Source of the DNA: an uncultured Dehalococcoidia bacterium
Lineage (GTDB): Bacteria > Chloroflexota > Dehalococcoidia > SZUA-161 > SpSt-899
Assembly (NCBI GenBank): GCA_964634125.1
Contig: CAZWIP010000002.1
Span: 1-54,978, forward strand
DNA length: 54,978 nt
Direction of reading: 5' to 3'
A program made the translations under genes and the position numbers. Under the pieces are notes generated by a model. That model worked only from the letters and a program-made list of their open reading frames with translations. It had not been told where the DNA came from and did not search any database. Below, piece by piece: positions 8,544-54,978 of this stretch; position 1 is the first letter of the stretch; each line of letters opens with the position of its first letter.

Positions 8544-8736
8544 CGGTTCAGTATTCCCTTATGGTATGTTGGATCGTGAAATACCTTTGTATTGTAGCAC
8601 ATTCCCAAGTATGGATGAGATCGGGTTTTTCGAAAAACACCCCGTAATTTGAGGGTATATCCCAATGTTGAAGATTTACATGTCTGGTATAATCAAAATA
8701 TAGGTACCAAATTAAAGGTGTGAGCGGTTCGTTAAT

Positions 8737-9195: not shown

Positions 9196-9198
9196 AGC

Positions 9199-9366
9199 AT
9201 GTCGAAGAAAAAGTCGTTCTATTTCCGTTTGTTTCTACTAGTCGCATTTTTGGCTTTTGTAGGAACTACCGTGGCTTCTCAGTACGATGATGTTCGCAGC
9301 TCCGTCACTCAGCCCTGCTTTGAGTGTCTAGGAGTTGAGTACAAGCAAGGACCCATCTTCGAATGA
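9199..9366 (+). CDS. Small secreted or membrane-anchored CxxC peptide (55 aa), not in the ORF track
   Basis: Encodes MSKKKSFYFRLFLLVAFLAFVGTTVASQYDDVRSSVTQPCFECLGVEYKQGPIFE: a charged N-terminus, a hydrophobic helix and a CFEC motif. Its stop overlaps the next start (ATGA), which suggests translational coupling. The SD is weak. Confidence 0.4.
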   Translation: MSKKKSFYFRLFLLVAFLAFVGTTVASQYDDVRSSVTQPCFECLGVEYKQGPIFE

Positions 9367-11262: not shown

Positions 11263-11405
11263 TACTTGTGCCAATATGACATCTGTGAGCATTTTTAGCT
11301 TTTTCAAACGTAAAGCGCACATAGATGTGTTTTTACATTGATTCCCTACTTTCATGATAAGGTAATTCACTGTTATAATAGAGAGTTGACTTCAGGAGGA
11401 TTGTT

Positions 11406-12788
11406 TTGAAAGTATCGTCGGAAAGGCTCGAAGGTTGCCTTGTTGCCCTTACGGTTGAAATCGAGCCAGAGGAAATGGAAAAAGCTCAAGAGGGAGCATA
11501 TCGACGGCTTGTTAAAAAAGTTGCCGTCCCCGGATTCCGCAAAGGCAAAGCGCCACGTGCTTTACTGGAACTCCATATAGGGAAAGGGTCTTTCGATGCT
11601 GAAGCCTTAGATCGATTGGTTCCGGAACTATATGATCAAGCAATTGAACAAGAGAAGGTTATAGCTATTGGCCAACCTGATTTGGAGATGACCCAGGCTG
11701 ACCCACCGATATTCAAGGCCACTGTTCCGGTACGCCCTGAAGTAGAGTTGGGTGACTATCATTCCATCAGGGTAATGAAAGACGAGGTAGAGATCACCGA
11801 TAAGGATGTTGAACAGGGGATTGATAACTTGCGACAAATGCAAGCCACCCACGAACCTGCGGAACGTGATGCAGGCCTGAACGATATAGTGATTATTGAT
11901 GTAGAAGGCATCGTTGAAGAAAAAACTGTTCTCGATTCGAAAGAAAGCCAGTACAGGATAACTGAGAATTCTGTAATGCCGGTAGCGGGATTTGCGGATC
12001 AAATACAAGGGATGAAAGCGGGGGATCAGAAGGAATTCACGTTGCCCTTCCCTGAAGATCATGAGAGTGAAGAACTGGCTGGGAAGGACTGCCTGTTTAA
12101 AGTATCGATGTCTGATGTCAAAGAAGAGAAACTGCCCGAAGTCGATGATGAGTTCGCCAAAAGTATGGGGCAGGGCATCGAAACTGTTGAGCAACTCAAG
12201 GAAAGACTTCGAGAGAACATTACAACTGCTGCAGAACGTGAATCACGATCTAAGCTGGAGAACGAAACAATTGAGGCCGTTGCGGCTATATCAAAGGTGG
12301 AATTCCCTGCCATCTTCACAGAACAGGAAATTGATCGTCTTGGGAATGAGCAGATGATGCGGCTTGGTGGAATGCAGGTACAGGATTTTCTCAAGTATAG
12401 AGGGATTACCGAAGAGGATTTTCGAAACGAACTGAGACCAGCCGCAGAAAAAAGGGTCATGAGCTCGTTGATATTAAACAAAGTCCACGATACTGAAAAC
12501 GTTGAGGTAGATGATGCTGAAATTGATTCAGAGATCGATAAAATTGTGGAAGAGGCGGGAGAAGAACAGGCTGAAGCAATAAAGAAAATGTTTGAGACGG
12601 CAGAGGCTCGAGAATCAATACGTGGGCGTCTTCTAACTGAGAAGACAATTAACTTATTGATTGACATTGCTACTACGGATGAGGTTGCACCTGTAGAAGA
12701 GGCGGTTCCGGAGCAGGAAGTTGCTGAGGAAGTAACTCAGGAAGAGGATCAAAGTGAGCAATCCCCAAACGAGGAGGATAGCGAATGA
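11406..12788 (+). CDS. tig: Trigger factor
   Basis: TTG start 7 nt after AGGAGGA. N-terminal ribosome-binding signature GFRKGKAP, and an acidic C-terminal tail. Followed by clpP, the classical tig-clpP order. Confidence 0.9.
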
Positions 12789-13405
12789 TTGTAAATCCAC
12801 AAAACATTATCCCGATGGTAGTGGAGACTAGCAGCAAGGGAGAGCGTGCCTTTGATATATTCTCGCTTCTCTTGAAAGAGCGGATTATATTCCTTGGTTC
12901 GCCCATCGATGATCACATAGCAAATTTGATCGTGGCTCAACTTCTATATCTCGAACGGGAAGATCCTGATAAAGATATCAGCATGTATATCCATAGCCCC
13001 GGCGGTTATGTATCCTCAGGATTGGCAATTTACGACACGATGCAACTTGTCAGATGCGATATTTCCACAATATGTGTTGGGATGACTGCTAGTTTGGCTG
13101 CTATCCTGCTTTGTGCCGGCGCCAAGGGTAAGCGCTATTCCCTGCCGCACGCGAAGGTCATGATGCACCAGCCTACGGGCGGACTGGGAGGGCAAGCCTC
13201 GGATATCAAGATTCAGGCCGAAGAAATTATAAAGACCAAAACCATGCTCAATGAGATAATTGCTAAGCATAGCGGGCAGAGCATTGAATTTGTTAAGCAG
13301 GAAACTGAACGAGACCGATACTTAAGCGCCGAAGAGGCCAAAGAATGGGGTCTTATCGATGAGATTTTAAGCAGCGAAGTTGCTGAAGGTAAAGAGGCAG
13401 AGTAG
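12785..13405 (+). CDS. clpP: ATP-dependent Clp protease proteolytic subunit (paralogue 1)
   Basis: Contains [12 protein letters not shown], the Ser nucleophile context GMTASLAA and MMHQP (His). Its start overlaps the tig stop by 4 nt. Confidence 0.9.
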
Positions 13406-13424
13406 CGAGAGGGAGGAATCCAAG

Positions 13425-14042
13425 ATGGATAGAGTAGACATGTCTGATTTGCAGCCTGTAGTGATAGAGAGTACCGATGTAGGAGTATTGGGCTATAGCA
13501 TTTACTCACGATTACTTAAAGATCGGATTATCTTTCTTGGGGGTGGTGTTGATGATGAAAAGGCCAACTCCATTGTAGCGCAGATATTGTTTTTAAATAA
13601 TGAAGATCCTAAGACGGATATTCGGTTTTTCATCAATTCTCCTGGTGGATCAGTTTCGGCTGGACTGGCGATATATGACACTATGCAATCTGTGAACTGT
13701 GATGTAAGCACTTGTTGTGTAGGGATGGCAGCGAGCATGGGGGCTGTACTATTGTTGGGTGGCACCAAAGGTAAGCGTCATTTACTACCAAATTCCAGAG
13801 TGTTACTGCATCAGCCATTGATGGGAACAGTGACAGGTCCGGCAACTGATTTGGAAATTCAAGCAGAAGAGATGCTGCGAATTCGTGATCAGCTGTACAA
13901 AATTATTAGCGACCATACCGGCCAAAACATAGAACAGGTCGAGAAAGATTGCGATCGTGATTACTGGATGGATGCCGGGCAGTCACTTGAATACGGTGTA
14001 GTTGACAGTATCCTGGAAAAACTGCCTAGTAGCGGTAAGTAA
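13425..14042 (+). CDS. clpP: ATP-dependent Clp protease proteolytic subunit (paralogue 2)
   Basis: Contains DRIIFLGGGVDD, GMAASMGA and LLHQP. I place the start at the ATG at 13425, preceded by GAGGGAGGA. The 13380 start in the ORF track is an upstream extension. Confidence 0.85.
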   Translation: MDRVDMSDLQPVVIESTDVGVLGYSIYSRLLKDRIIFLGGGVDDEKANSIVAQILFLNNEDPKTDIRFFINSPGGSVSAGLAIYDTMQSVNCDVSTCCVGMAASMGAVLLLGGTKGKRHLLPNSRVLLHQPLMGTVTGPATDLEIQAEEMLRIRDQLYKIISDHTGQNIEQVEKDCDRDYWMDAGQSLEYGVVDSILEKLPSSGK

Positions 14043-14067
14043 AGTAGGCGAATATTCGGTGAACTTG

Positions 14068-14105
14068 AAAGCTGCGTGATCGTAAGAGGTCATGCAGCTT
14101 TTTCT
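14068..14105 (+). terminator. Rho-independent terminator after clpP2 (between convergent genes)
   Basis: AAAGCUGCGUGA-ucguaagagg-UCAUGCAGCUUU followed by UUUCU. The stem has one G.U pair. It abuts the stop of the convergent gene at 14104. Confidence 0.65.
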
Positions 14106-41767: not shown

Positions 41768-44700
41768 ATGCCGAGACGGGATGATATCAAAAAGGTAATG
41801 ATAATAGGGTCCGGACCAATTGTGATCGGGCAAGCTTGTGAGTTCGACTATTCGGGAACACAGGCGTGCAAGGCACTCCGAGGGCTGGGATACGAAATTG
41901 TGCTGGTGAACTCCAATCCCGCTACTATAATGACTGACCCCGGAATGGCGGATGTTACATATATTGAGCCGTTGAACATGGAAACGATGGAACGCATCAT
42001 CGAAAAAGAACGGCCTGACGCGTTGCTTCCAAACCTGGGGGGTCAAACTGCGCTGAACCTCAGTTCTGCGCTTGCCAAAGCAGGGGTACTCGACAAGTAC
42101 GGAGTCAAAATCATCGGTGTTGATATTGATGCTATCGAACGTGGAGAGGACCGAATCGCGTTTAAGAATATGATGGATAAGCTGGGCATTGAAATGCCCG
42201 AGAGTACAGCCGTTTACAATGTAGAAGATGCTGAGAATGTTGCCGCCGAGCTTGGCTACCCGGTGGTTATTCGCCCGGCATATACGATGGGCGGAACCGG
42301 CGGCGGCCTAGTATACAACGTGGAAGAATTGCGTGTAGTTGCCAGCCGAGGCATTTCGGCAAGCCTTATCGGGCAGATTCTGGTTGAGGAATCCGTGCTG
42401 GGCTGGGAGGAACTGGAGCTTGAAGTAGTGCGCGATGCCAAGAATCAGATGATCACTGTATGCTTCATCGAAAATGTCGATGCGATGGGTGTGCACACCG
42501 GCGATTCATACTGCACAGCTCCCATGCTCACCATCAGTCCTGAACTGCAAAAACGCTTGCAAGAGTATTCTTATAAGATTGTAGAATCGATCCAGGTAAT
42601 CGGCGGCACTAACGTTCAGTTCGCGCATGATCCGAAAACAGACCGAGTAGTAGTAATCGAGATCAATCCGCGTACATCTCGATCATCCGCTCTGGCCTCT
42701 AAAGCTACCGGGTTCCCAATCGCGCTGATTTCATCCCTGCTGGCCGGTGGATTGACCATGGACGAGATTCCCTATTGGCGTGACGGAACATTAGAAAAAT
42801 ATACGCCGTCCGGTGACTACGTGGTCGTGAAGTTCTCACGCTGGGCTTTCGAGAAATTTAAAGATGCCGAAGACAAGCTGGGCACCCAGATGCGGGCAGT
42901 TGGCGAGGTGATGAGCATCGGGAAGAATTACAAGGAAGCCTTCCTGAAAGCCATTCGTTCACTGGAAAAAGGACGCTACGGCCTCGGATTCGCCAAGGAT
43001 TTTAATGAAAAATCTCTCGAAGAACTCATGGAGATGCTAAACGAGCCCTCCAGTGAACGCCAGTTCATTATGTACGAGGCCCTGCGTAAAGGCGCTGACA
43101 TTCAGGAACTCCACCAGAAAACCTACATCAAAGCCTGGTTCATCGAGCAAATGAAGGAGCTGGTGGAACTTGAAGAGAAGGTTCTTACATACAAAGGAAA
43201 AGTTTTACCGGACGATTTGCTCATTCAAGCCAAAAAAGATGGATTTGCCGATAGATATCTGGCGCAAATTCTTGTAATTGCCGAAAAGGAAATCCGTGAA
43301 AAGAGAATCGGACTGGGTATGACAGAAGGCTGGGAACCCGTTCCAGTCAGTGGCGTGGAAAACGCCGCCTACTACTTCTCCACCTACAATGCGCCTGACA
43401 AGACTACAGCCACGAGCAACAGGAAGATCATGGTACTTGGCGGTGGACCCAACCGAATCGGGCAGGGAATCGAATTCGACTACTGCTGTGTTCACGCGGC
43501 ATTCGCACTACGCGATGAAGGCTACGAGACGATCATGGTTAACTGCAATCCCGAAACCGTCTCTACAGATTACGACACCTCAGATAAACTCTATTTCGAG
43601 CCATTGACAGTTGAAGACATCCTGAGCATCTATGAAAAGGAAAAACCGGAAGGAGTCGTGGCTCAGTTCGGAGGGCAGACACCACTCAATATTGCCGCTG
43701 AACTGGAAGCAGTCGGAGTGAAGATTCTGGGCACTTCACCAGATACTATTGACCTGGCCGAAGACCGTGATCGTTTTAGCGCGATGATGGCTAAACTTGG
43801 CATCCCAATGGCAGAATCCGGCATGGCCAGCAAGTTGGAAGATGCTCTGGCTATAGCGAACCGAATCGGATATCCCCTCATGGTTCGGCCATCTTACGTG
43901 CTTGGCGGACGCGGCATGGAAGTGGTTCACGATGAAGAAATGCTCGAAGAGTACTTTGCCGCTGCTGTGGGAGTTACCCCTGATCGTCCAATCCTGATCG
44001 ACAGGTTCCTCGATAACGCTATTGAGGCCGAAGCGGATGCCATTGCCGACGGAACCGATGCCTTCGTTCCCGCCATCATGGAGCACATCGAACTGGCCGG
44101 AGTTCATTCCGGTGACTCGGCCTGTGTTATTCCGCCAGTCAGCATTCCCGAAAAACACATAGATACAATCTATGAATACACCAAAAAGATAGCCAAAGAA
44201 CTTCACGTGGTAGGCCTGATGAATATGCAGTATGCCATCTGCAATGACATCGTGTATGTTCTGGAAGCTAACCCGAGGGCATCTCGAACCGTGCCCATCG
44301 TTTCCAAAGTGTGCGGCCTTTCCATGGCCCGGATTGCGATGCAGATCATGATGGGTAAAAAGCTTGCCGATCTCGACCTCAAACCACAATCAATCCCTCA
44401 TTTCGGAGTCAAGCAGGCTATATTCCCCTTCCCCATGTTCCCCGAGGTTGATCCTGTTCTGGGACCGGAGATGAGATCCACCGGCGAGGTTCTCGGGATG
44501 GCCGATTCCTTCGGACTGGCCCTCTTCAAATCTGAGGAAGCCGGACAGCAGTGTCTCCCGGATGAGGGGGCTGTTTTGCTTACCGTGGTAGACAAGAACG
44601 AGGATACCGTATTACCAACGGCCCGGCAATTTGTAGAACTCGGTTTCAAGATTAAAGCAACCGAAGGCACACGCGAGTTCCTGACCCAAAACGGCATTGA

Positions 44701-44968
44701 ATCCGAACTCATTCTCAAAATGCATGAAGGTCGGCCCAACATCGTTGACGGCATAATGAACGGAGAGATTCAACTAGTCATCAATACTCCGGTTGGCAAA
44801 CGAAGTCAATATGACGATTCTTACATTCGCAAAGCAGCGATCAAACACAAAATCCCGTATATCACGACTCTGGCCGGAGCGGCTGCGGCAGTCAGAGGAA
44901 TCGCGGCACATCGCAGAGGCGCTGCAGGGGTCAGGTCGTTACAGAGCTATCATGCCGATATTAAGTAA
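41768..44968 (+). CDS. carB: Carbamoyl-phosphate synthase large subunit, copy 1
   Basis: 1066 aa with two ATP-grasp halves (IGSGPIVIGQACEFDYSG; LGGGPNRIGQGIEFDYC), an oligomerisation domain and an MGS-like allosteric domain. The SD is AGGAGGGA. Confidence 0.9.
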   Translation: MPRRDDIKKVMIIGSGPIVIGQACEFDYSGTQACKALRGLGYEIVLVNSNPATIMTDPGMADVTYIEPLNMETMERIIEKERPDALLPNLGGQTALNLSSALAKAGVLDKYGVKIIGVDIDAIERGEDRIAFKNMMDKLGIEMPESTAVYNVEDAENVAAELGYPVVIRPAYTMGGTGGGLVYNVEELRVVASRGISASLIGQILVEESVLGWEELELEVVRDAKNQMITVCFIENVDAMGVHTGDSYCTAPMLTISPELQKRLQEYSYKIVESIQVIGGTNVQFAHDPKTDRVVVIEINPRTSRSSALASKATGFPIALISSLLAGGLTMDEIPYWRDGTLEKYTPSGDYVVVKFSRWAFEKFKDAEDKLGTQMRAVGEVMSIGKNYKEAFLKAIRSLEKGRYGLGFAKDFNEKSLEELMEMLNEPSSERQFIMYEALRKGADIQELHQKTYIKAWFIEQMKELVELEEKVLTYKGKVLPDDLLIQAKKDGFADRYLAQILVIAEKEIREKRIGLGMTEGWEPVPVSGVENAAYYFSTYNAPDKTTATSNRKIMVLGGGPNRIGQGIEFDYCCVHAAFALRDEGYETIMVNCNPETVSTDYDTSDKLYFEPLTVEDILSIYEKEKPEGVVAQFGGQTPLNIAAELEAVGVKILGTSPDTIDLAEDRDRFSAMMAKLGIPMAESGMASKLEDALAIANRIGYPLMVRPSYVLGGRGMEVVHDEEMLEEYFAAAVGVTPDRPILIDRFLDNAIEAEADAIADGTDAFVPAIMEHIELAGVHSGDSACVIPPVSIPEKHIDTIYEYTKKIAKELHVVGLMNMQYAICNDIVYVLEANPRASRTVPIVSKVCGLSMARIAMQIMMGKKLADLDLKPQSIPHFGVKQAIFPFPMFPEVDPVLGPEMRSTGEVLGMADSFGLALFKSEEAGQQCLPDEGAVLLTVVDKNEDTVLPTARQFVELGFKIKATEGTREFLTQNGIESELILKMHEGRPNIVDGIMNGEIQLVINTPVGKRSQYDDSYIRKAAIKHKIPYITTLAGAAAAVRGIAAHRRGAAGVRSLQSYHADIK

Positions 44969-45166: not shown

Positions 45167-46254
45167 GTGAATAAACAAAAGGCATTTCTGGCACTGGAAG
45201 ACGGATCATTCTACGAAGGTCATTCCTTCGGGGCTGAGTTACAGACCTCCGGTGAAGTTGTCTTCACCACCAGCATGACAGGGTATCAGGAGGTTTTAAC
45301 CGACCCGTCATTTGCAGGGCAGTAATCCCCACCTACCCAATGATCGGCAACTACGGCATCAACGATCAGGATTACGAATCAAAAAGAATACAGGTTGCCG
45401 GATTTGTGGTTCGTGAGGAATGTGAGGTTCCCAGTCATGGGTTAAGCACTCGCACTTTGCATGAGTATTTGCTGTCACAGAATATCCCCGGACTGAGTGG
45501 CATCGATACCCGATCACTGGTTCGAAAGCTTCGCTCCCACGGTGTTATGATGGGAATCCTTTCACAGGGAATTGATCCGCAAGAAGCACTGGCGCAGCTC
45601 GAATCCATACCTCGCTATGACAGCATCGATTTCGTTAAGGAAGTAACCACAAGGGAAGCTTTCGAGTGGGAGCCTTCAATGGATCAAACCGGACCCAGAA
45701 TTGCCCTGCTCGATTCGGGCACCAAATTCAACATCCTGCGGAGTTTGCATCGCCTGGGATGCTCGATCACAGCGCTTCCTTGCACGACCAGCGCGGAAGA
45801 CGTGATGAAATTAAACCCGGACGGCATCTTCTTTTCGCCCGGCCCTGGCGATCCCGCCTTGCTTGATTATCTGATTGGTACCATTCGGGAATTGGTAGAA
45901 AAGAAACCGGTAATGGGTATTTGCCTGGGACATCAGTTGATCGGACGGGCATTCGGAGCTGAAACGTTCAAGCTCAAATTCGGGCATCGAGGTGCGAATC
46001 ACCCGGTGAAGGATATGGAAACAGGTCGCGTGTATATCACTGCCCAGAACCATGGTTATGCCATCGATGCTGACACGGTGAAGAGTGGGCTGGAAGTTTC
46101 GCATATCAATTTAAATGACGGTACGGTTGAGGGACTAAGACACCGCGAACTGCCGCTCTTTACTATCCAATACCATTCGGAAGCCTCTCCAGGCCCGCTG
46201 GATAATATGTATCTATTTGAGCGATTTGTAGAGATGGTTAAGGAGAACATGTGA
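45167..46254 (+). pseudogene. carA: Carbamoyl-phosphate synthase small (glutaminase) subunit, reading frame disrupted at about 45322
   Basis: A GTG start at 45167 gives [22 protein letters not shown]...LTDPSFAGQ, then TAA at 45323. Homology resumes in another frame from 45322 ([14 protein letters not shown]...). The rest is intact, including GICLGHQL and YHSEASPGP. Confidence 0.75.
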
Positions 46255-46305: not shown

Positions 46306-49300
46306 ATGTCTGAAATATCTAAAGTTCTAGTCATAGGATCAGGCCCGATAATCATCGGGCAAGCGGCGGAGTTCGACTATTCCGGCAGCCAGGCGTGTCG
46401 TGCTTTGCGCGAAGAGGGAATAACTACGGTATTAGTGAACTCCAATCCGGCCACAATCATGACCGACGAAGGTATCGCTGATACTGTCTACATCGAACCT
46501 CTCACGGTAGAAATCGTAAAAAAGATAATCGAAAAGGAACGCCCCGACGGTCTATTGCCTACTCTTGGCGGTCAAACCGGACTCAATTTAGCTGTAGATT
46601 TAGCCAAAGCAGGAATATTGGATGAGTACGGTGTTCGTACATTAGGCACCTCCATAGAAACCATACAGATTGCTGAAGACCGAGGATTATTCAAACAACT
46701 GCTAATCGATATTGGCGAACCAGTGCCTGATAGTGCAACCGTGACCAATATGGATGAGGCCCGAGAAGTGGCACAATCCATCGGCCTACCACTCGTAATT
46801 CGACCCGCATACACCCTCGGTGGAACAGGTGGAGGTATTCCCAGGACCGAGGAAGAGTTCGAATTAATAACCTCCCATGGCATTGCTATGAGTCCTATTC
46901 ATCAAGTTCTCTTGGAAAAGTGTCTCATCGGTTGGAAGGAGATGGAGTACGAGGTGATGCGTGATGGTGATGACAACTGCATCACCATCTGTAATATGGA
47001 GAATATCGATCCGATGGGTATCCATACCGGCGAGAGTATCGTGGTGGCTCCCAGCCAGACACTCACGGACAAAGAATATCAGATGCTTCGCTCTGCAAGC
47101 CTGCGGATTATTCGGGCTTTGGGGATCGAAGGTGGATGTAATGTGCAATTTGCACTCGAACCCCATCCTATCGTTGGAACGCGTCGAGAAGGTGAAAGTC
47201 CATACTATGTAATTGAAGTAAACCCCCGTGTGAGCCGTAGTTCTGCGCTGGCAAGTAAGGCTACAGGCTATCCCATCGCTCGTGTGGCTGCCAAGATCGC
47301 GGTGGGAAAAACACTCGACGAAATCGCGAACAAAGTGACCGGCAAGACCACTGCCGCTTTTGAGCCCGCATTGGATTACTGTGTGGTTAAAATCCCGCGC
47401 TGGCCGTTCGATAAGTTCACCAAAGGGAATCGTAATTTGGGTACGCAAATGAAATCCACAGGCGAAACCATGGCCATCGAGCGCACCTTTGAAGCGGCAT
47501 TGAAGAAAGCGGTGCGATCGTTGGAAGTAGACACTAGGACCATGCTTTGGGAGGATCCGACGTGGAGAGACGGATACTTTCCGCTCGAACCCACTGACCA
47601 GCGTTTATGGGCAGTTTTTGCTGCGCTCAGACAGGGCATGATCACAGAAGAGTTGTGCCACAGAACCGGCGGCATCGATCCATGGTTTCTGTATAAGTTC
47701 CAAAATATTGTCGATATGGAAAACCGACTACGTTCCGAACCGCTGGCTGCTAAGCTTATGCGAGATGCCAAGCGAATGGGTTTCTCTGATAGAGAAATCG
47801 GCATCCTTGCGAGTCATTCTGCCGAGGAAATTCGAAAAATGCGGCATCAATGGGGTCTGCGCCCGGTATACAAAATGGTGGACACCTGTGCGGCTGAATT
47901 CGCCGCAGAAACCCCCTATTTTTATAGTACATATGAACAGGAAAATGAAGCTATTCCAATAACAGGGGAAAAGGCGCTAGTCGTTGGTAGTGGGCCTATT
48001 AGAATCGGGCAGGGTATTGAGTTCGATTACTGTAGCATTCATTCTGCCTGGGCTCTGCAGGAGAATGGAGTGAAGGCCATCATGGTCAACTCGAATCCAG
48101 AGACCGTTTCTACCGACTTCGATACCAGCGATCGCCTTTATTTCGAACCTCTTGACGAAGAAAGCATCCGCGATATCTTGGAAAATGAGACAGCAGAGTC
48201 AGCCAGTCCTTCGGCATCGATTGTACAATTTGGAGGGCAGACATCGATAAACCTGGCGGAACCACTAACACGTAGCGGTTTGACACTCTTGGGATCGAGT
48301 TTCGATAGCATCGATCTGGCTGAAGACCGGGATCGTTTCCAGGATATGATGAACAAGCTTGGCATTCCGATGGCCGAATCTGGAATGGCCAGTAGTCTGG
48401 ATGAAGCGTTAGTCATTGCTGAGAGAATCGGGTATCCGCTAATGGTACGGCCTTCTTATGTGCTCGGTGGACGGGGCATGGAGATAGTCTATGATGAAGA
48501 GATGCTCACGGAGTACTTTGTTGCTGCCATCGATGTTACCCCGGATCGACCGATACTAATCGACAGATTTTTAGAGAATGCTATCGAGGTTGAAGCAGAC
48601 GCTATTGCTGATGGAACCGATGCATTCGTACCAGCGATCATGGAGCACATCGAACCGGCGGGGATTCATTCGGGCGATTCCGCCTGCGTCATCCCGCCGG
48701 TCAGCCTTCCCCAGAAGCACATTGATACTATTAATGAATACACCAAGAAGATAGCAAAAGAGCTTAATGTAATTGGATTGATGAACATCCAATATGCCAT
48801 TTGCGAGGATAAGGTCTACGTCATTGAAGCGAATCCGCGTGCCTCGCGTACTGTGCCAATTGTATCCAAGGTTTGTGGGCTGTCTATGGCTCGGCTGGCG
48901 ACGGAAGTAATGTTAGGAAAGAAAATTGCCGATCTGGGACTGAAGCAGCGTACAATTCCACACTACGGGGTTAAACAAGCGGTATTTCCATTTCCCATGT
49001 TTCCTGAGATGGACCCGATACTAGGCCCCGAAATGAGGTCCACCGGTGAAGTTTTGGGGATATCGGATTCCTTTGGGATGGCACTTTTCAAGGCAGAGGA
49101 AGCTACGCGTCAACCGCTTCCAACTGAAGGATGCGTACTCTTTACTGTCGCGGATAAAGACAAAACAACATTAACGGCAGTAGCTAAACAATTTGCAGAT
49201 CTGGGATTCAACTTCAAAGCAACACAGGGTACAGGCGAATTATTGTCCAAAAGCGGCATTGATGCCGAGTCTATACTAAAAATGCATGAGGGCCAGCCAA

Positions 49301-49530
49301 ACATCGTTGATGGAATTATTAATGGGGATATCCAACTGATCATCAACACACCGGCTGGTAAAACAAGCAAGCATGATGATTCCTATATTCGCAAGACTGC
49401 GATCAAATATAGAGTTCCTTATATCACCACTATGGCCGGAGCGGCCGCTGCTGCTAAGGGAATCGCTGCGTACTGTCAAGGGCACGTAGAGGTCAAATCC
49501 CTCAAAGAGCATCATGCTGGTATTAAGTAG
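46306..49530 (+). CDS. carB: Carbamoyl-phosphate synthase large subunit, copy 2
   Basis: 1074 aa with the same domain order as copy 1. The C-terminal ~40% is much closer to copy 1 than the N-terminal part is. Confidence 0.9.
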   Translation: MSEISKVLVIGSGPIIIGQAAEFDYSGSQACRALREEGITTVLVNSNPATIMTDEGIADTVYIEPLTVEIVKKIIEKERPDGLLPTLGGQTGLNLAVDLAKAGILDEYGVRTLGTSIETIQIAEDRGLFKQLLIDIGEPVPDSATVTNMDEAREVAQSIGLPLVIRPAYTLGGTGGGIPRTEEEFELITSHGIAMSPIHQVLLEKCLIGWKEMEYEVMRDGDDNCITICNMENIDPMGIHTGESIVVAPSQTLTDKEYQMLRSASLRIIRALGIEGGCNVQFALEPHPIVGTRREGESPYYVIEVNPRVSRSSALASKATGYPIARVAAKIAVGKTLDEIANKVTGKTTAAFEPALDYCVVKIPRWPFDKFTKGNRNLGTQMKSTGETMAIERTFEAALKKAVRSLEVDTRTMLWEDPTWRDGYFPLEPTDQRLWAVFAALRQGMITEELCHRTGGIDPWFLYKFQNIVDMENRLRSEPLAAKLMRDAKRMGFSDREIGILASHSAEEIRKMRHQWGLRPVYKMVDTCAAEFAAETPYFYSTYEQENEAIPITGEKALVVGSGPIRIGQGIEFDYCSIHSAWALQENGVKAIMVNSNPETVSTDFDTSDRLYFEPLDEESIRDILENETAESASPSASIVQFGGQTSINLAEPLTRSGLTLLGSSFDSIDLAEDRDRFQDMMNKLGIPMAESGMASSLDEALVIAERIGYPLMVRPSYVLGGRGMEIVYDEEMLTEYFVAAIDVTPDRPILIDRFLENAIEVEADAIADGTDAFVPAIMEHIEPAGIHSGDSACVIPPVSLPQKHIDTINEYTKKIAKELNVIGLMNIQYAICEDKVYVIEANPRASRTVPIVSKVCGLSMARLATEVMLGKKIADLGLKQRTIPHYGVKQAVFPFPMFPEMDPILGPEMRSTGEVLGISDSFGMALFKAEEATRQPLPTEGCVLFTVADKDKTTLTAVAKQFADLGFNFKATQGTGELLSKSGIDAESILKMHEGQPNIVDGIINGDIQLIINTPAGKTSKHDDSYIRKTAIKYRVPYITTMAGAAAAAKGIAAYCQGHVEVKSLKEHHAGIK

Positions 49531-49611
49531 CAGAATACCGCAATTTCGACTATAATGCATTCATCTCCTTCCGATACCGGGGGGATACGTCAAAATACAA
49601 GGGATGAACTT

Positions 49612-50013
49612 ATGACTGAACAGAAACTCGAATATGGCCAATTGGAGGTAGGGCAGGAATTCCCTGCCGTAAGTTTTAGTCTGGATTCTGATTCGGTTAC
49701 CTCATATTTGAAGGCGACTGGCGAAACAGATAGTCTCTATGAAGGCACAGGAATCGTGCCGCCAACGGCGGTAGCTGCATGGGCTTTAATATCATTACTG
49801 GAACATGTTGTATTGCCTGAAGGTACAATACACCTTTCGCAGGAGTTACAATGTCTCTCCATGGCAACAAAAGGAGACACCATAAACTGCCGCGCTCGCG
49901 TCAGCCGTAAACAGGAGCGTAGTCGGCTACGATTGCTTGATATCGAATTTGATGTTGTGGATAAAGAAGGGACACCTCTAATTTCAGGGAAAAGCAGTTT
50001 CAATTTCCCCTAG
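49612..50013 (+). CDS. MaoC-like hotdog-fold protein (non-catalytic half)
   Basis: Start taken at MTEQKLEYGQLEVGQEFP (ATG at 49612 after AAGGGA). Hotdog-fold length, with no hydratase motif. Confidence 0.55.
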   Translation: MTEQKLEYGQLEVGQEFPAVSFSLDSDSVTSYLKATGETDSLYEGTGIVPPTAVAAWALISLLEHVVLPEGTIHLSQELQCLSMATKGDTINCRARVSRKQERSRLRLLDIEFDVVDKEGTPLISGKSSFNFP

Positions 50014-50033: not shown

Positions 50034-50471
50034 ATGGGAACAGAAAAGAGAATAGACGTATCATCACTACAAGAGGGAACATCTCTCTATGAAATGAAGA
50101 AGGAAGTTGTTCAGGAGAATATCAATCTCTATGCAGAGGCGAGTAAGGATTTTAATCCGATTCATATTAATGAGGAATTCGCCAGGAACACACCTCTGGG
50201 CGGCACCATAGCGCACGGTATGTTGATTCTTGCGTACGTTTCACAAATGATGACAGCCAACTTTGGCCAAGCCTGGCTCACAAGCGGAAAACTCAACACT
50301 CGATTCAAAGCTCCCGCTCGGCCCGGTGATACCGTGACTATCAGTGGCACTGTGAAAAAGCTTGAAACAACCGAGGAAGGGACATCAGTTAAATGCAATG
50401 TCCTTTGCCTGAATCAGTCTGGTGAAACCGTCATTTCGGGTGATGCTTCGATAATTCTGGGTGGTTGCTAG
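50034..50471 (+). CDS. MaoC-domain (R)-specific enoyl-CoA hydratase/dehydratase subunit
   Basis: Hydratase-2 motif region FNPIHINEEFARNTPLGGTIAHGML. It is paired with the preceding hotdog gene, as in heterodimeric dehydratases. Confidence 0.7.
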   Translation: MGTEKRIDVSSLQEGTSLYEMKKEVVQENINLYAEASKDFNPIHINEEFARNTPLGGTIAHGMLILAYVSQMMTANFGQAWLTSGKLNTRFKAPARPGDTVTISGTVKKLETTEEGTSVKCNVLCLNQSGETVISGDASIILGGC

Positions 50472-50498: not shown

Positions 50499-50580
50499 TG
50501 TCATTCTGAGGGAATCCGTATGGATGACCGAAGAATCTCTCTGATTGGTATTGAGATTCTTCGCTTCGCTCAGAATGACA
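50499..50580. repeat. Nested-hairpin repeat element E1 (REP/MITE-like)
   Basis: Outer arms TGTCATTCTGAG / CTCAGAATGACA (12 bp, perfect) and inner arms CGAAGAATCTC / GAGATTCTTCG (11 bp, perfect). Its right end is related to the left end of E2 in inverted orientation. Confidence 0.7.
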
Positions 50581-50742
50581 TTTAAAATGTGACATAACAC
50601 TATCCTTCTTCTTTTTCCTCATTATCGCTCAATATTCGTTGAATGTGTGCTGTTGCGTTAGGTTCGTCATCACAAACTATTCAAATGCTTGAGTTGCCGG
50701 ACTACGTGATGTATGCTGAGTGCAAATAGCAAGGAAAACGAA

Positions 50743-51015
50743 ATGGACAGCATAGGCTCATTCATAATTGGTGTGGTCATTATTCATCTGATACTGGTGG
50801 TATTTGCTCTTCGAGATTTATTCACATTATCAACTATAAAAAACAAGTTCGGGAAAGGGGTGTGGGGGCTGTTGATAGTAGTGTTCCCGATAACTGGGCC
50901 CATCGTCTATCTCAATTATGGGAGAGGTGAACGTTCATGGAGCCAGAAGGTTAAAGAATTGCAGCAGCGTGCGCTTGAAAAGCATGCTGAAAATGAAGAG
51001 TCCGTAGATAAATAA
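50743..51015 (+). CDS. PLDc_N-family small two-TM membrane protein
   Basis: IIGVVIIHLILVVFALRDLF...GKGVWGLLIVVFPITGPIVYLNYGRG fits the PLD-nuclease-N-terminal-domain small-protein pattern. Start taken at the ATG at 50743 after AAGGA. Confidence 0.6.
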   Translation: MDSIGSFIIGVVIIHLILVVFALRDLFTLSTIKNKFGKGVWGLLIVVFPITGPIVYLNYGRGERSWSQKVKELQQRALEKHAENEESVDK

Positions 51016-51031
51016 TGTCTCAGAGGTACCT

Positions 51032-52246
51032 GTGGCCAGGAAAGATCATTATACGTTACATCCATCAAACAGTTCGCTTCAAGAGGAATTCTATTACGGA
51101 AATATGTCCGTGAAACGAAAATCTCTTGCAGATGAATCGAAGCATACCAAGAGGATGGTTACGATCTTTGATTCATACTTAAAAGCAGGAATATTTCCCG
51201 CAGGAACCTGTTTGATTGGGGATTATCTGGAACATACGTTGACCAAAAACTCGCGTGATGAGCAGGAAATTGCTGGACGCTATCTCGGATTGGCACTTCC
51301 AAATGACAACTACCAATATGTACGGTTAGAGGGTGAAAGTATCGGAATCGAAAAGCATAAACTGAATCCTCCTGATGAGATAAACATCTTGACCGATACT
51401 TGTCTGTTCTGCGCATCAAATGCAACTGCCACTTTGGAAAATGGTGAAGTCGTTTCAATAGTAGCTCCCAAGACAAGAATCATAAGCCGGATAAAATCAC
51501 TGGAAATATCAGAAAATCTATGCTTATATGAAATGGACGCTGTAGTTCGGCTTACAGATATAATTGCCGCAATGAAAGAGGGGAATACATCTTTTGCAAA
51601 GGCGATTGTAGCCATGCCAACGGTTGAGTATTGTTTCTATCTTATGGAGGCTTACAATAAGGGATTTGTTGAAAAAGAGATGATGATTCACTGGATTGCT
51701 CAGGTAAATAAGCATGCCGAGAAGATAATTGCTGTCATGAGAAAAAGGATTGGTTTGCCAATAATAACCTGCCAGCCACTGGATAGTGTTGAATACTACA
51801 TTAAAGAGACCGTTGATTTAGGAAAACCGGCTGATTTTGAAAAAGTGAAAGAAATACTCTCAGAAGCGAGCCATCTGTGGAAAGAAGTACTTTCGATCAC
51901 AAAGCCCCGAGAATGGAAGCAGTTAAACTACACCAATTATGCTATCGCTGTTTTGAAATCCGCCATGGCGAACGGAAACAGTAACCGACTCACGATTGAT
52001 ATTGAGAATCCATCAGAACAAAGGATTTTGAGAAATGCGGCCAAAATCGCAAAAACGCTTGGAAAGCAAGGTTCCTCTGACAATTTTCGAGTTATCGGTA
52101 TCTATCCCCATGAAAAAGTATTCATTCCAAATATGGCAGAGTGTTCCCAATCATTTCCCCGACTTTACTACTTAGAGCAGACTCAGCTGGCTGGCAAATG
52201 TTATTACAGAGAGATCGTGGAGTCAAATCGTAGCAAAGTAACATGA
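51032..52246 (+). CDS. Hypothetical protein, 404 aa, no recognisable family
   Basis: GTG start 6 nt after AGAGGT, 16 nt after the preceding stop. Soluble, with no TM segment and no P-loop, DxD, HxH or Cys-cluster motif that I can identify. Lower G+C than the flanking genes. Confidence 0.5.
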   Translation: MARKDHYTLHPSNSSLQEEFYYGNMSVKRKSLADESKHTKRMVTIFDSYLKAGIFPAGTCLIGDYLEHTLTKNSRDEQEIAGRYLGLALPNDNYQYVRLEGESIGIEKHKLNPPDEINILTDTCLFCASNATATLENGEVVSIVAPKTRIISRIKSLEISENLCLYEMDAVVRLTDIIAAMKEGNTSFAKAIVAMPTVEYCFYLMEAYNKGFVEKEMMIHWIAQVNKHAEKIIAVMRKRIGLPIITCQPLDSVEYYIKETVDLGKPADFEKVKEILSEASHLWKEVLSITKPREWKQLNYTNYAIAVLKSAMANGNSNRLTIDIENPSEQRILRNAAKIAKTLGKQGSSDNFRVIGIYPHEKVFIPNMAECSQSFPRLYYLEQTQLAGKCYYREIVESNRSKVT

Positions 52247-52289
52247 TGCATAGTCTTTTTAGAGAACAAAATGGCGAGGAGGTGGCAAA

Positions 52290-52757
52290 ATGGTATCTTC
52301 CGAGATAGTCGATGCTTTACGAAGATGCGAGCTGTTTAGTAGTGTGGATCAAGAAGATGTCGAGCGGATTGCTACTCTGTGTCGTGTTGAAGAGTTCAAT
52401 GCCGGAGATACTGTAATTGCACAAGGGGAGTTCGGGCGAAGGATTTATCTCATTGCGGAAGGCCAAGTAGCGGTAATGAGGTCTGTCAGTCTTGGTGGGC
52501 GTCAAGGATCGATGACAATTGATCTGTTGGGCAAAGGCAGAGGATTAGGATGGTCATCAATGCTGTGTGATCCTTGTAGCGCATCCGCATCAGCAGTTTG
52601 CCAGAGACAAACGACGATTGTGTCTCTCGCAGGAGAAGATCTGAGAGCGTGGTTAGAAACCAGACCTGAAGTAGGATATAAAGTGATGGATAGGCTAGCC
52701 CAGATATTGGGGAACCGATTGCGAGCTGCATATGGGGCCATGGATACCTTCAGGTAG
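52290..52757 (+). CDS. Stand-alone cyclic-nucleotide-binding (CAP effector-type) domain protein with no output domain
   Basis: 155 aa. LFSSVDQEDVERIATLCRVEEFNAGDTVIAQGEFGRRIYLIAEGQVAV... is a beta-barrel followed by a C-helix (GYKVMDRLAQILGNRLRAA). The SD is GAGGAGG. Confidence 0.7.
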   Translation: MVSSEIVDALRRCELFSSVDQEDVERIATLCRVEEFNAGDTVIAQGEFGRRIYLIAEGQVAVMRSVSLGGRQGSMTIDLLGKGRGLGWSSMLCDPCSASASAVCQRQTTIVSLAGEDLRAWLETRPEVGYKVMDRLAQILGNRLRAAYGAMDTFR

Positions 52758-52776
52758 GAGTAGTTAAAGGAGTTGT

Positions 52777-53784
52777 ATGCCTAATTTAACACGTATTCTT
52801 TCTATTGATGGGGGAGGAATTAGAGGGATTATTCCGGGTCAAGTGCTGGTATCTCTTGAGCGGAAGCTTCAGGAGCATACAAAAAATCCCGATGCGAAAA
52901 TAGCTGACTTTTTTGATCTTATAGCTGGAACCAGTACCGGGGGAATTTTAACCTGCATATACTTGTGTCCAGATATAAAGGGCAATCCATCACGACCCAG
53001 ATTTTCTGCTCAGGAAGCTGTTGACCTATATTTGCTAAAAGGCGGAAAAATATTTGATACGTCCCTCTGGCAAAAGATACGAACGGGCGGGGGTATAAGC
53101 GATGAGAAATACGATGAGAGAGAACTTGAGGAGACACTTAAAAGTTATCTGGATGACTTGAAGCTCAGTCAGCTTTTGAAGCCCTGCCTTATAACTGCTT
53201 ACGATATTGAATTTAGACGAGCCAAGTTTTTCACCCAACACGATGCGAAACAAAAGGAAATGCACGATTATTTGGTAAAGGACGTAGCTAGGGCCACTTC
53301 AGCGGCACCAACGTATTTTGAAGCTGAACGCTTGCTATCGGTGACAGGGGTACCATACCCGTGCATAGATGGTGGGGTATTCGCGAATAACCCTTCTCTT
53401 TGTGCGTATGCTGAAGTAAGGAAGAAATTCGAAGGCAATCCTGCTGCAAAAGATATGGCGATTCTCTCTATTGGCACTGGTTATGTCAAGAAATCTTATG
53501 AATATAAAGATGCCAAGGACTGGGGAACGGTGGAATGGATTAAGCCCTTAATAGACATCATGATGTCAGGTGTTTCAGAAACTGTGGATTATCAAATGGC
53601 ACAGATTTACGATGCAGTTGGTCAGCCCAACCAATATTTAAGGGTCAATGGTGAACTACAGTTCGCCGATCCAGATATGGATAACGCTTCGCAGGAGAAT
53701 CTTCTAGCTTTGAAACAGGATGACACCAAGATTGCTGAAAAGTTCGATAGTCAGTTGGATTCCTTTATAGAATTTCTCTTATAA
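52777..53784 (+). CDS. Patatin-like phospholipase (CapV-sized, all catalytic motifs intact)
   Basis: ILSIDGGGIRG (oxyanion hole), AGTSTGG (GxSxG nucleophile) and IDGGVFANNP (catalytic Asp). 335 aa, with AAGGAG as the SD. Confidence 0.85.
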   Translation: MPNLTRILSIDGGGIRGIIPGQVLVSLERKLQEHTKNPDAKIADFFDLIAGTSTGGILTCIYLCPDIKGNPSRPRFSAQEAVDLYLLKGGKIFDTSLWQKIRTGGGISDEKYDERELEETLKSYLDDLKLSQLLKPCLITAYDIEFRRAKFFTQHDAKQKEMHDYLVKDVARATSAAPTYFEAERLLSVTGVPYPCIDGGVFANNPSLCAYAEVRKKFEGNPAAKDMAILSIGTGYVKKSYEYKDAKDWGTVEWIKPLIDIMMSGVSETVDYQMAQIYDAVGQPNQYLRVNGELQFADPDMDNASQENLLALKQDDTKIAEKFDSQLDSFIEFLL

Positions 53785-53798
53785 AAACATTTGAACAG

Positions 53799-53881
53799 TG
53801 TCATCGCGAGCGAAGCGCGGCGATCTTCCTGCCTTCCGAGGAGATTGTCGCGTCGGTCCTCCTGACCTCCTCGCAATGACA
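53799..53881. repeat. Nested-hairpin repeat element E2 (REP/MITE-like)
   Basis: Outer arms TGTCATCGCGAG / CTCGCAATGACA (1 mismatch) and inner GCGGCGATCT / AGATTGTCGC (imperfect). It shares TGTCAT-NNN-GAGCGAAGCG with the reverse complement of the right end of E1. Confidence 0.65.
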
Positions 53882-53903: not shown

Positions 53904-54978
53904 ATGACTGATTTCAATTCTAAGGGCGAATCAAGAGTTCCTGAAAGCCTGCTTTCTCAGATATGGAAAGGCCAGTGGCTTAAGCAAGGACCTTTCCCTG
54001 CTAGTGACGGTAGGGTTGTCAGAGTGAAATGGGCGGGAAGGGAAAACAAGGATAGCGGCCCCGATTTTCTCAATGCAGCAATCATTCTTGATGATGAAAT
54101 AGTTACTGGCGATATCGAGCTTCATGTCAGGTCGAGTGACTGGCGCTCTCACGGCCACCATCTCGATCCTCATTTCAACAACGTCATTCTGCAGGTGGTT
54201 TTTTGGGACGATTCGAAAAAACCTGCTCAACTTGAAAATGGCGACCATATCCCTACCCTGCCGCTCCGTGAATTTCTCAACGGATCGATGGATGATCTCG
54301 CTGTAAAAGCGGAATCTCATCAGATACCATCATTGCCCTGCCGAAATATCGGAAAAGTTTTAGGTGAGAAAAGGATAGGCGAAATCCTGGATGAGTATGG
54401 TATCGAGCGGTTTTATTTGAAATCAGCGTCCTTTGAAATCGACCTAATAATTGAAGAACCGGAGCAAGTTCTCTACCAGCGCATGATGGGAGCTTTGGGC
54501 TATACCAAGAACAAGAAAGCTTTTGAGGAATTGGCGCGGCGATTGCCATATCGAGTTATTGAAAACATCATACAAGAACAAGAACTCGTAAATAGAACGC
54601 TCATGCTGCAAGCACTGCTTCTGGGTTCTGCAGGTCTGTTGCCTTCACAGTGTGATGGAAAATCGAAACTGAGTCGTTCTGTTGAAGTGGGTAACTTGGA
54701 GAGAGCATGGGATTCATTGAACGTCAGTGATTCCATGAGTTATGCGGATTGGCACTTTTTCCGAATGCATCCCAAGAATTTCCCCACTTCTCGGCTTTTC
54801 GCTGCTGGGTATCTTCTCGATCGTTATCTTGAAGAAGGATTGTTAAAGCAAGTGCTTGAACTTGTAAGAGAGGCAAATCCTGGCAAAGGTGCAACTATGA
54901 TTGAGAGAGGTTTCGTTGTTCCCGACTGTGCGTCTTCAGCAAAAGTGGGACAAATGGGCCCGATAATTAAAGGACACA
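53904..54978 (+). CDS. DUF2851-family protein (3' end outside the window; absent from the ORF track because no stop is reached)
   Basis: Open frame from the ATG at 53904 to the window edge. ESLLSQIWKGQW...GRENKDSGPDFLNAAIILDDEIVTGDIELHVRSSDWRSHGHH...NNVILQVVFWDD matches the DUF2851 pattern. The minus-strand ORFs over it are shadows. Confidence 0.7.
   Translation, partial: MTDFNSKGESRVPESLLSQIWKGQWLKQGPFPASDGRVVRVKWAGRENKDSGPDFLNAAIILDDEIVTGDIELHVRSSDWRSHGHHLDPHFNNVILQVVFWDDSKKPAQLENGDHIPTLPLREFLNGSMDDLAVKAESHQIPSLPCRNIGKVLGEKRIGEILDEYGIERFYLKSASFEIDLIIEEPEQVLYQRMMGALGYTKNKKAFEELARRLPYRVIENIIQEQELVNRTLMLQALLLGSAGLLPSQCDGKSKLSRSVEVGNLERAWDSLNVSDSMSYADWHFFRMHPKNFPTSRLFAAGYLLDRYLEEGLLKQVLELVREANPGKGATMIERGFVVPDCASSAKVGQMGPIIKGH

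Follow-up and report, generated by a model that had tools for sequence, protein, structure and literature searches.

The 54,978-nt stretch of DNA analyzed here (positions 1 to 54,978 of contig CAZWIP010000002.1, assembly GCA_964634125.1, from an uncultured Dehalococcoidia bacterium; hereafter the window) carries a cassette of four genes, all located on the + strand and separated by gaps of 16, 43, and 19 nt. The first gene (50743..51015) encodes a small PLDc_N-type membrane protein of 90 aa with two transmembrane (TM) segments (PF13396, E 4.6e-7); a longer alternative start exists at 50713, and the orthologs start at the Met of position 50743. The second gene (51032..52246, GTG start) encodes a 404-aa protein, here termed the orphan, which had been described as lacking any recognizable motif and indeed has no match in Pfam, NCBIfam, or PADLOC. 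It is followed by a gene (52290..52757) for a 155-aa single-domain protein of the CRP/FNR fold (cNMP_binding, PF00027, 49.2 bits), and by a gene (52777..53784) for a 335-aa patatin-like phospholipase (PF01734, E 2.4e-23), whose presence in the operon is optional. Direct reading of the sequence revealed Shine-Dalgarno (SD)-like sequences for the four genes (AAGGAA, AGAGG, GGAGG, and AAGGAG). A preliminary description of this locus, made from the sequence alone, had reported four co-directional genes with short gaps and individual SD sites, and had identified PLDc_N, cNMP-only, and patatin domains; the list of open reading frames (ORFs) and the direct reading confirm the former, and Pfam scans the latter. 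That description had further proposed that the cassette is an accessory insertion encoding a nucleotide-sensing defense system. The data presented below indicate, on the contrary, that the cassette is an operon of long standing in a single Chloroflexota clade, in which it has been inherited vertically.

Conserved genes are found on both sides of the cassette. A MaoC-like (R)-hydratase gene (50034..50471, +; PF01575, E 3e-21) serves as upstream anchor, as its next downstream gene is, in most lineages, that of the orphan or of PLDc_N; this applies also to the patatin-less L003, L004, L022, and L032. Further upstream, and outside the cassette, lies a gene for a FAS1_DH/hotdog-fold hydratase-like protein (49555..50013, +; PF13452, E 9e-6), which is kept in L001, L005, L010, L011, L014, and L022. 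On the downstream side, a DUF2851 gene (53904..54978, +; PF11013, E 7e-58), of which the window contains the 5′ part, is a conserved operon partner that follows the patatin gene in L001, L005, and L010 and the cNMP-fold gene directly in L004, L016, L020, L023, and L031, the intervening gaps being of about 15-140 nt; its identification agrees with the reported location of the cassette between car genes and a DUF2851 gene. The labels L001, L005, and so on designate the recovered loci, about 30 in all, onto which the window proteins were mapped. The full order carA-carB-FAS1_DH-MaoC-PLDc_N-orphan-cNMP-patatin-DUF2851 was observed at 93% (L010), 88% (L005/L006), and 69% (L001/L002/L011/L014) orphan identity, and the order in which the FAS1_DH, PLDc_N, and patatin genes are optional is kept at 93%, 88%, 69%, 54%, and 49% orphan identity. 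Two local variations were recorded in these arrays. In L005, an inserted gene for a MscS-type mechanosensitive channel (8467-9108) separates the FAS1_DH-like gene from the MaoC gene, the array being otherwise identical. The DUF2851 ortholog of L010 (10756-12090) is listed as two same-frame ORFs (105 and 319 aa) that tblastn aligns as one piece, a pattern that points to codon recoding, an in-frame stop, or an error.

The divergence of the cassette genes was in step with that of their neighbors. In comparison with L001, the levels of identity were 69% for the orphan, 71% for the cNMP-fold protein, 75% for the patatin, 71% for MaoC, and 66% for CarB, and the synonymous divergence (dS) of the cassette genes with respect to L010 and L005 was in the same range as that of carB and MaoC. 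The ratio of nonsynonymous to synonymous divergence (dN/dS) was 0.06-0.27 for each of the four genes, which supports that they form a genuine unit under selection; the PLDc_N gene is the fastest-evolving of the four (dN 0.24 vs L010). Regarding base composition, GC contents of 40.7%, 42.1%, and 42.7% were obtained for the orphan, PLDc_N, and patatin genes, respectively, and of 48.7% for the cNMP-fold gene, with 43.0-55.3% (mean 47.7, sd 2.8) for the 37 other genes of the window. The cassette had been described as richer in AT than its surroundings, and this holds, slightly, for the first three genes but not for the cNMP-fold gene, whose composition is average. In addition, GC content follows the host, with values of 57-61% for the four genes in the 58.5%-GC contig L015. 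The latter locus is one of the four lineages (66-93% identity) that share the four-gene order, and in it the whole block is found elsewhere, away from car, MaoC, and DUF2851 genes and with a gene for a glycyl-radical enzyme downstream. The presence of the L015 block in another neighborhood indicates that the four genes can travel as a block, and it is the best evidence that they belong together where all of them are present.

Two copies of a palindromic, MITE/REP-like (miniature inverted-repeat transposable element/repetitive extragenic palindromic) repeat of about 82 nt are located in the spacers that flank the cassette. The first copy (50499..50580; termini GTCATTCTGAG / CTCAGAATGAC) lies between the MaoC and PLDc_N genes, and the second (53799..53881; termini GTCATCGCGAG / CTCGCAATGAC) between the patatin and DUF2851 genes. 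The predicted RNA folds of the two copies have energies of -39.1 kcal/mol (z -5.6) and -44.5 kcal/mol (z -5.1), respectively. Termini of the type GTCATYSYGAG occur four times in the window, all of them in these two repeats, against 0.23 expected by chance. The preliminary description had seen here a cassette bracketed by inverted copies of a repeat: the two elements are present, but since each of them is itself palindromic, the term inverted carries no information on orientation. Both repeats are shared only with the 93% relative L010, where they occupy the same two spacers (L010 positions 7391 and 10685). The element is absent from the spot of the first copy in L005, L001, L011, and L014, and the patatin-DUF2851 spacer of L001, only 15 nt long, does not contain it. 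The repeats were considered as cassette boundaries and rejected as such, given their absence from the cassette-bearing 88% and 69% relatives. Their presence in L010 and their lack in the 88% and 69% relatives identify them as recent small intergenic insertions, and the repeat family looks like a young MITE/REP-like element. In summary, the same locus in relatives, a divergence in step with carB and MaoC, a host-like GC content, and repeats that do not mark boundaries argue against an accessory insertion. A fixed locus with vertical inheritance, the pattern that the preliminary description itself had set against its proposal, is thus what the relatives display; the cassette does not behave as a mobile island, the sole variably present gene being that of the patatin.

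Comparison of gene content among lineages revealed which genes stay together. The arrangement PLDc_N-orphan-cNMP-patatin is found in the window/L010, L005, L001, and L015. In L031 the order is PLDc_N-orphan-cNMP-DUF2851, with no patatin gene, and in L016, L023, and L020/L004 it is orphan-cNMP-DUF2851, with no patatin gene and, where the upstream side is visible, no PLDc_N gene. Loci L003/L032 show the order MaoC-orphan-(radical SAM, opposite strand)-cNMP. The orphan and cNMP-fold genes are adjacent or near in nine of the ten lineages whose downstream side is visible: they are adjacent in the window/L010, L005, L001, L015, L016, L023, L031, and L004/L020, and one radical-SAM gene separates them in L032. 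This opposite-strand insertion spans 9327-10337 in L003 and 8345-9355 in L032, with L032 9777-10064 alongside. An initial assignment of L003 as a locus without cNMP-fold gene was rejected, as its sister contig L032 has this gene after the radical-SAM gene and L003 ends too early. The cNMP-fold gene is missing in L007/L008/L021, where an ArsR-type regulator gene, a small zinc-ribbon-like ORF, the orphan gene, and a gene for a 113-aa unknown protein are found in succession. In L007 (7283-9582) and L021, a lineage at 58% identity, the orphan gene is thus part of another mini-operon behind an ArsR/HTH_5 regulator, which includes a zinc-ribbon-like protein with a CxxC...CxxC pattern and neither a cNMP-fold gene nor a patatin gene. 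In L009/L018 a gene for a TPR protein precedes the orphan gene, after which the contig ends. Altogether, the data indicate that the stable unit consists of the 404-aa protein and the cNMP-fold protein, and that the patatin is optional.

The patatin gene was detected in four of nine lineages and is absent in L004, L016, L020, L023, L031, and L032. Orthologs of the PLDc_N gene are present in L010, L005, L001, L015, and L031 and absent in L003, L004, L016, and L022. Strict co-variation of both genes was considered and is rejected by L031, which has PLDc_N but no patatin, so that only the rule that patatin implies PLDc_N remains. In the tree of the cNMP-fold protein the patatin-bearing lineages are not monophyletic, with L001 pairing with the patatin-less L023 and L015 being the deepest branch, which implies repeated loss or gain of the patatin gene. 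This distribution leads to a first alternative, according to which there is no four-way unit: the orphan and the cNMP-fold protein, perhaps together with DUF2851, cooperate, and the PLDc_N and patatin genes are independent genes at a permissive spot, the patatin being an ordinary stand-alone lipid hydrolase. The absence of the patatin in five of the nine informative lineages, in which the orphan, cNMP-fold, and DUF2851 genes stay, is in line with this proposal, as are the occurrence of PLDc_N without patatin in L031, the entry of other genes into the array (that for MscS in L005 and the radical-SAM gene in L003/L032), and the fact that the nearest patatin relatives stand alone. However, L015 keeps the order and the tight spacing of all four genes despite its other neighborhood, the patatin gene was seen in this clade only together with the other three genes of the cassette, and the gaps, of 16-43 nt, suggest that the genes are transcribed together. 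On balance we regard independence of the PLDc_N and patatin genes as rather unlikely.

The location of the MaoC gene allows a second alternative, in which the cassette would be part of a lipid-metabolism operon. The lipase would free acyl chains for the FAS1_DH-like and MaoC hydratases and for an acyl-activating or acyl-transferring orphan, with PLDc_N included in the operon and the CRP-fold protein as its regulator. MaoC lies directly upstream and on the same strand in most lineages, the Ser-Asp dyad of the patatin is intact, and a few low-probability fold matches of the orphan correspond to the fatty-acid-binding FakB/DegV proteins (probability 0.10-0.18). On the other hand, these FakB matches are insignificant, the cassette occurs without MaoC/FAS1_DH in L015, L016, and L031, the spacer between MaoC and the cassette, of about 240-270 nt, is able to hold a repeat element, and the superfamily to which the orphan is assigned below does not lie beside lipid genes in Patescibacteria and Streptomyces. 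A function of the cassette in lipid metabolism of this type is, in consequence, improbable in our view.

The 155-aa protein contains the cNMP_binding domain as its sole domain, covering residues 34-124 of 155 and scoring well over the PF00027 cut-off of 27.5 bits. Its relatives of known structure include 2pqq, 3d0s, and 4ev0 (E 1e-11 to 1e-13). In canonical domains of this family, the Glu of the FGE motif holds the ribose 2′-OH and the Arg of the RSA/RTA motif holds the cyclic phosphate. The region corresponding to the phosphate-binding cassette in the 155-aa protein (GKGRGLGW88SSMLCDPCSA98SASAVC) was aligned to those of PKG (FGE...RSAT) and the CRP-family protein 2pqq (GEL...PRTAT) in two independent HMMER alignments, and both placed Trp88 at the canonical Glu position and Ala98 at the canonical Arg position. 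The same two residues are present in 10 aligned orthologs and in L031, and the segment GKGRGLGWSSxLC[DE]PCSxSASAxC is kept in the orthologs, the most divergent of them (L015, L020/L004) having one or two residues exchanged. Cysteines C13, C31, C93, C96, and C104 are invariant in all orthologs. The replacement of Glu and Arg by Trp88 and Ala98 makes canonical cNMP sensing unlikely on the basis of these alignments.

CRP/FNR-superfamily sensors with other ligands include FNR (Fe-S), CooA (heme), CprK, and NtcA. The 155-aa protein shares with such non-cNMP sensors the cNMP_binding fold, the lack of the residues that canonically bind phosphate, and the presence of conserved cysteines. It differs from them in lacking a DNA-binding helix-turn-helix and in a Cys pattern that is not that of FNR; also, an enzyme, and not DNA, would appear to be its partner. 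With the effectors of the Pycsar defense system the protein has in common a CRP-type beta-barrel followed by a C-helix, and PADLOC models of the PycTIR type match it at E 1e-8. Pycsar effectors, however, carry a fused TIR or TM module, whereas the 155-aa protein stands alone with no fused output, and Pycsar includes a PycC cyclase, for which only a spurious 11.9-bit PADLOC match was obtained here, on the cNMP-fold protein itself. Moreover, residues E87 and R97 of the Pycsar effector PsPycTIR, the counterparts of this Glu and this Arg, contact cUMP and hold its ribose and phosphate (PMC11224242), in contrast to Trp88 and Ala98 in the 155-aa protein. The earlier suggestion that this protein is a cNMP sensor licensing the lipase is at odds both with these replacements and with the persistence of the gene without patatin in L004/L020, L016, L023, L031, and L032.

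The patatin had been reported to have intact catalytic motifs, and this was borne out: DGGGIRG (residue 11), GTSTG (residue 51, with Ser53), and DGGV (residue 198, with Asp198) were read in the window protein and are kept in four orthologs, so that the enzyme is predicted to be catalytically intact. The protein had also been compared to CapV, the lipase of type I/II CBASS (cyclic-oligonucleotide-based anti-phage signaling systems), with which it shares the patatin fold, the GGGxRG oxyanion loop, the GxSxG serine, the DGG aspartate, and a similar size. Its score with the NCBIfam CBASS_lipase model NF041079 was 185.1 bits, below the 200-bit cut-off, and that with the PADLOC phospholipase-effector model PDLC00758 was 220 bits. 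The best match among proteins of known structure was potato patatin (1oxw, 1.2e-42), solved CapV structures giving values of 1e-22 to 1e-25. The best plasmid-borne relatives are stand-alone patatins of Bacteroidota and Fusobacteria (38-44% identity), and no annotated CD-NTase (the nucleotidyltransferase of CBASS) was present beside them at the two loci inspected; the identity of the window protein to annotated CBASS lipases is lower, at 28-31%. CapV sits with a CD-NTase, whereas the patatin studied here occupies a fixed, vertically inherited locus, and no CD-NTase was found at that locus in the window, L001, L005, L010, or L015. The patatin is therefore CapV-like in sequence type, yet its subthreshold score, its stand-alone nearest relatives, and the lack of a CD-NTase at these loci do not support its assignment to CBASS or the idea of a CapV-like effector. 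Neuropathy target esterase (NTE) and other PNPLA6-type proteins contain cNMP-binding domains fused to a patatin domain, and the cassette resembles them in combining both domain types in one functional context. In NTE/PNPLA6 they form one polypeptide, whereas here they are encoded by separate ORFs with their own SD sites and a 19-nt gap, in a pairing that is optional (4/9 lineages); furthermore, the patatin is of the plant-patatin/CapV type, and no NTE-type model matched it. A domain-centric defense-discovery paper mentions patatin only within CBASS.

These results bear on the proposal of a nucleotide-sensing abortive-infection system, in which the cNMP-fold protein would bind a cyclic nucleotide, with either the orphan or a cyclase located elsewhere as its source, and would license the CapV-like patatin to destroy the membrane. 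The scores of the patatin with the PADLOC phospholipase-effector model (220 bits) and with CBASS_lipase (185 bits) speak for it, together with the resemblance of the cNMP fold to the sensor domain of Pycsar effectors (E 1e-8), the patchy presence of the lipase, and the movement of the four-gene block as a unit in L015. Nevertheless, the Glu and Arg of the phosphate-binding cassette are replaced in every ortholog, and no cyclase was found in any of the loci. In agreement with the preliminary description, no cyclase lies in the cassette or among 20 window genes tested between 20.8 and 45 kb, a set of nitrogen-assimilation, his, and car genes that contains no CD-NTase, integrase, or defense gene either. 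Comparisons with Pfam, PADLOC, and Foldseek revealed no likeness of the orphan to CD-NTases or to cyclases of the class III and PycC types, and no relatives of it were found in IMG/VR. Finally, the locus is fixed, vertically inherited, and of host-matching composition, and the cNMP-fold gene is kept where the lipase is absent. A nucleotide-triggered phage-defense system is thus not supported by the data, and we consider it very improbable; if it did exist, it would resemble CBASS and Pycsar while having a split sensor and lacking a cyclase.

Search of 5.8 billion proteins for relatives of the 404-aa protein yielded a narrow family of 19 close relatives with about 90 invariant positions, whose named sources are metagenome-assembled genomes of the Chloroflexota/Dehalococcoidia type and one binned as Planctomycetes. 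An exhaustive search with a profile hidden Markov model revealed a wider superfamily of at least 346 representatives (clusters at 50% identity) at E<=1e-3, with 61 at E<=1e-30. The members, from Chloroflexota, Patescibacteria, and Streptomyces, are mostly of about 400 aa and match residues ~110-400. Among 64 diverse members, C124, E167, P196, and Y200 are invariant, and the motifs GxCLFS, YExE, PRVEYY, ENPxE, and YPHE recur; together with E167 and Y200, E329 and YPHE (358-361) belong to the acidic and aromatic residues that are invariant or nearly so. None of these 64 members had a match in Pfam, and no sequence relative of the orphan was found in the Protein Data Bank (PDB) by single-sequence or profile search. 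To judge from these sequence comparisons, the 404-aa protein belongs to an undescribed superfamily.

The genomic contexts of this superfamily outside the Chloroflexota clade are diverse. In two Patescibacteria loci (L025 6001-8246 and L026 6001-8270) the homolog overlaps by 4 nt a DUF917/S-Me-THD gene (PF06032+PF20906), and in a third one (L027 2221-3267 and 6001-7968) a DUF917 gene lies 3 kb away. The Patescibacteria homologs are located directly upstream of aminoacyl-tRNA synthetase (aaRS) genes, namely thrS-infC-rpmI-rplT-pheST or an AspRS-like gene. DUF917 genes encode predicted ring-opening hydrolases and are reported to be enriched in cyclodipeptide-oxidase clusters that lack a cyclodipeptide synthase (CDPS) (bioRxiv 10.1101/2023.09.25.559410). 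The secondary-metabolite-rich megaplasmid pSCL4 of S. clavuligerus (L033, NZ_CP045850.1) contains an unannotated homolog (tblastn E 1e-12) upstream of cytochrome P450 and terpene synthase genes (8560-9912, 10527-11714, and 12611-14089). As the Patescibacteria and pSCL4 contexts include neither a cNMP-fold gene nor a patatin gene, the superfamily is tied to neither, and the proposed linkage of the orphan to the patatin does not extend to the wider superfamily, which sits in unrelated contexts.

An AlphaFold2 (AF2) model of the 404-aa protein was obtained with high confidence scores (pLDDT 87.8, pTM 0.88). In the model, residues 1-112 are predicted to form an alpha+beta domain and residues 113-404 a Rossmann-like core, the first strand of which is immediately followed by Cys124; YPHE is located at the last core strand. 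In Foldseek searches with full-length and core-only models, the top ranks in both PDB and BFVD corresponded to CDPS and tryptophanyl-tRNA synthetase (TrpRS), including PDB entries 5ocd, 9i5m, 9iam, 2x9q, 4q24, and 3a04, with probability up to 0.97, and a BFVD TrpRS with 0.90; these matches are not significant (E 7e-3 to 5e-2, TM-score 0.26-0.45, root-mean-square deviation (rmsd) 8-16 A). Homology to CDPS at the sequence level was rejected: hhalign of the superfamily against a profile made from AlbC (whose sequence is 100% identical to 3oqv), Rv2275, YvmC, and BtCDPS gave a probability of 0.15%, and the Pfam models for CDPS and tRNA synthetases had no match at E<=1 in the 64 members. In view of the non-significant Foldseek values and the negative hhalign result, the resemblance of the predicted fold to CDPS and TrpRS, reproducible but weak, is taken as a lead only. 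The modeled core has in common with CDPS and class Ic aaRS (TrpRS/TyrRS), its top structural neighbors, a nucleophile-type residue after the first core strand. It differs from them in that no HIGH or KMSKS motif is readable and in the presence of an extra N-terminal domain and a long helical insertion.

This resemblance is the starting point of an alternative based on non-nucleotide signaling. The orphan would be a class-Ic-aaRS/CDPS-like synthase with Cys124 as nucleophile, making a cyclodipeptide or a hydantoin-like molecule, that is, a small cyclic molecule other than a nucleotide, which would be read by the Cys-rich CRP-fold protein as receptor, gating the patatin lipase as an optional output. 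Consistent with such a scheme are the ranking of CDPS and TrpRS at the top of Foldseek matches in two libraries and with two models, the invariant Cys after the first core strand, the 4-nt overlap with DUF917 in two Patescibacteria, the position of the pSCL4 homolog upstream of P450 and terpene synthase genes, and the degenerate phosphate-binding cassette, which implies a ligand other than a cNMP. The fold matches, however, have E values of about 1e-2 with the low TM-scores and high rmsd values given above, the sequence comparisons with hhalign and Pfam were negative, and the contexts come from three or four loci only, the narrow family having no DUF917 or P450 neighbor. We therefore rank this scheme as the least probable of those considered. 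If it were true, the cassette would constitute a new second-messenger-to-lipase module, for defense or physiology, with the 404-aa protein as founding example of its superfamily.

The explanation that we favor, with a probability of roughly 45%, is that the cassette is a lineage-specific, vertically inherited operon for a Cys-dependent enzyme and a CRP-fold sensor of something other than a cNMP, to which PLDc_N and the lipase are optional additions. Its core pair would consist of the predicted Rossmann-like enzyme of 404 aa and the stand-alone ligand-binding protein of CRP/FNR fold. On the grounds that Glu and Arg are missing and five cysteines are invariant, we infer that the 155-aa protein does not sense a 3′,5′-cyclic nucleotide; by analogy with other members of its fold, it could reasonably respond to redox conditions, to a metal or Fe-S cluster, or to a small ligand of another kind. 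The protein would act on its neighbor, probably regulating the enzyme, by protein-protein contact. The add-ons, PLDc_N upstream in some lineages and patatin downstream in fewer, would extend this core: where present, the lipase would probably provide a membrane output in the form of regulated phospholipid deacylation, its physiological role being perhaps in membrane remodeling or in a stress response, and PLDc_N may be its membrane partner.

Several observations weigh against this explanation. The patatin is patchily distributed among close lineages (present in L001, absent in L023), as would be expected for an accessory or defense gene, and its best family-level matches are the PADLOC (220 bits) and NCBIfam (185 bits) models of anti-phage lipases. 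The GC contents of the orphan, PLDc_N, and patatin genes are below those of all 37 other genes in the window, and the occurrence of the four-gene unit in a second neighborhood (L015) indicates that it is able to relocate as a block. A cyclase might be encoded elsewhere in these genomes, the analysis having covered the loci and the window genes tested. In addition, a CRP-fold domain without Glu and Arg could bind an unusual nucleotide in a non-canonical manner, and both the proposed contacts and the proposed ligand are points that we infer.

Other features of the window were also recorded. A nitrogen-assimilation block at 20832-41743 contains genes for a NrpR-type regulator, glutamine synthetase, Amt, and a split archaeal-type glutamate synthase, the latter encoded as GXGXG, Glu_synthase, and GATase subunits with an Fe-S/FAD partner; this block adjoins the DprA and HisF genes. 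Two full-length carB-type genes (41768-44968 and 46306-49530, encoding 1066 and 1074 aa, respectively) with the same CPSase domain architecture are located on either side of carA, an arrangement kept in L001, L003, L005, and L010. The carA gene (45167-46254) seems to contain a frameshift: of the 363-aa CarA ortholog, residues 1-57 align in frame 2 (45167-45337) and the remainder in frame 1 (45316-46251), so that the longest carA ORF is of only 304 aa. This frameshift would reflect an error in sequencing or assembly, or else the gene is a genuine pseudogene. Neither tRNA genes nor Rfam families were found in the window, scans for promoters and terminators gave results at chance level, and nothing useful was found in the literature on DUF2851 and PLDc_N.

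The presence of a defense-looking pair, made of a cNMP fold and a CapV-like patatin, in an old syntenic operon is a caution for the domain-based mining of defense systems. The pairing of domains is in itself a variant of known themes, namely patatin lipases, CRP-fold sensors, and NTE-type architectures that combine cNMP-binding and patatin domains. The new elements are the unannotated superfamily of predicted enzymes and the Cys-rich CRP-fold protein that is its near-obligate neighbor in one clade. For the compact and highly conserved superfamily, a confident AF2 model is available and candidates for the catalytic residues stand out clearly; both proteins are tractable targets for studying the function of dark-matter proteins in Dehalococcoidia and Patescibacteria.

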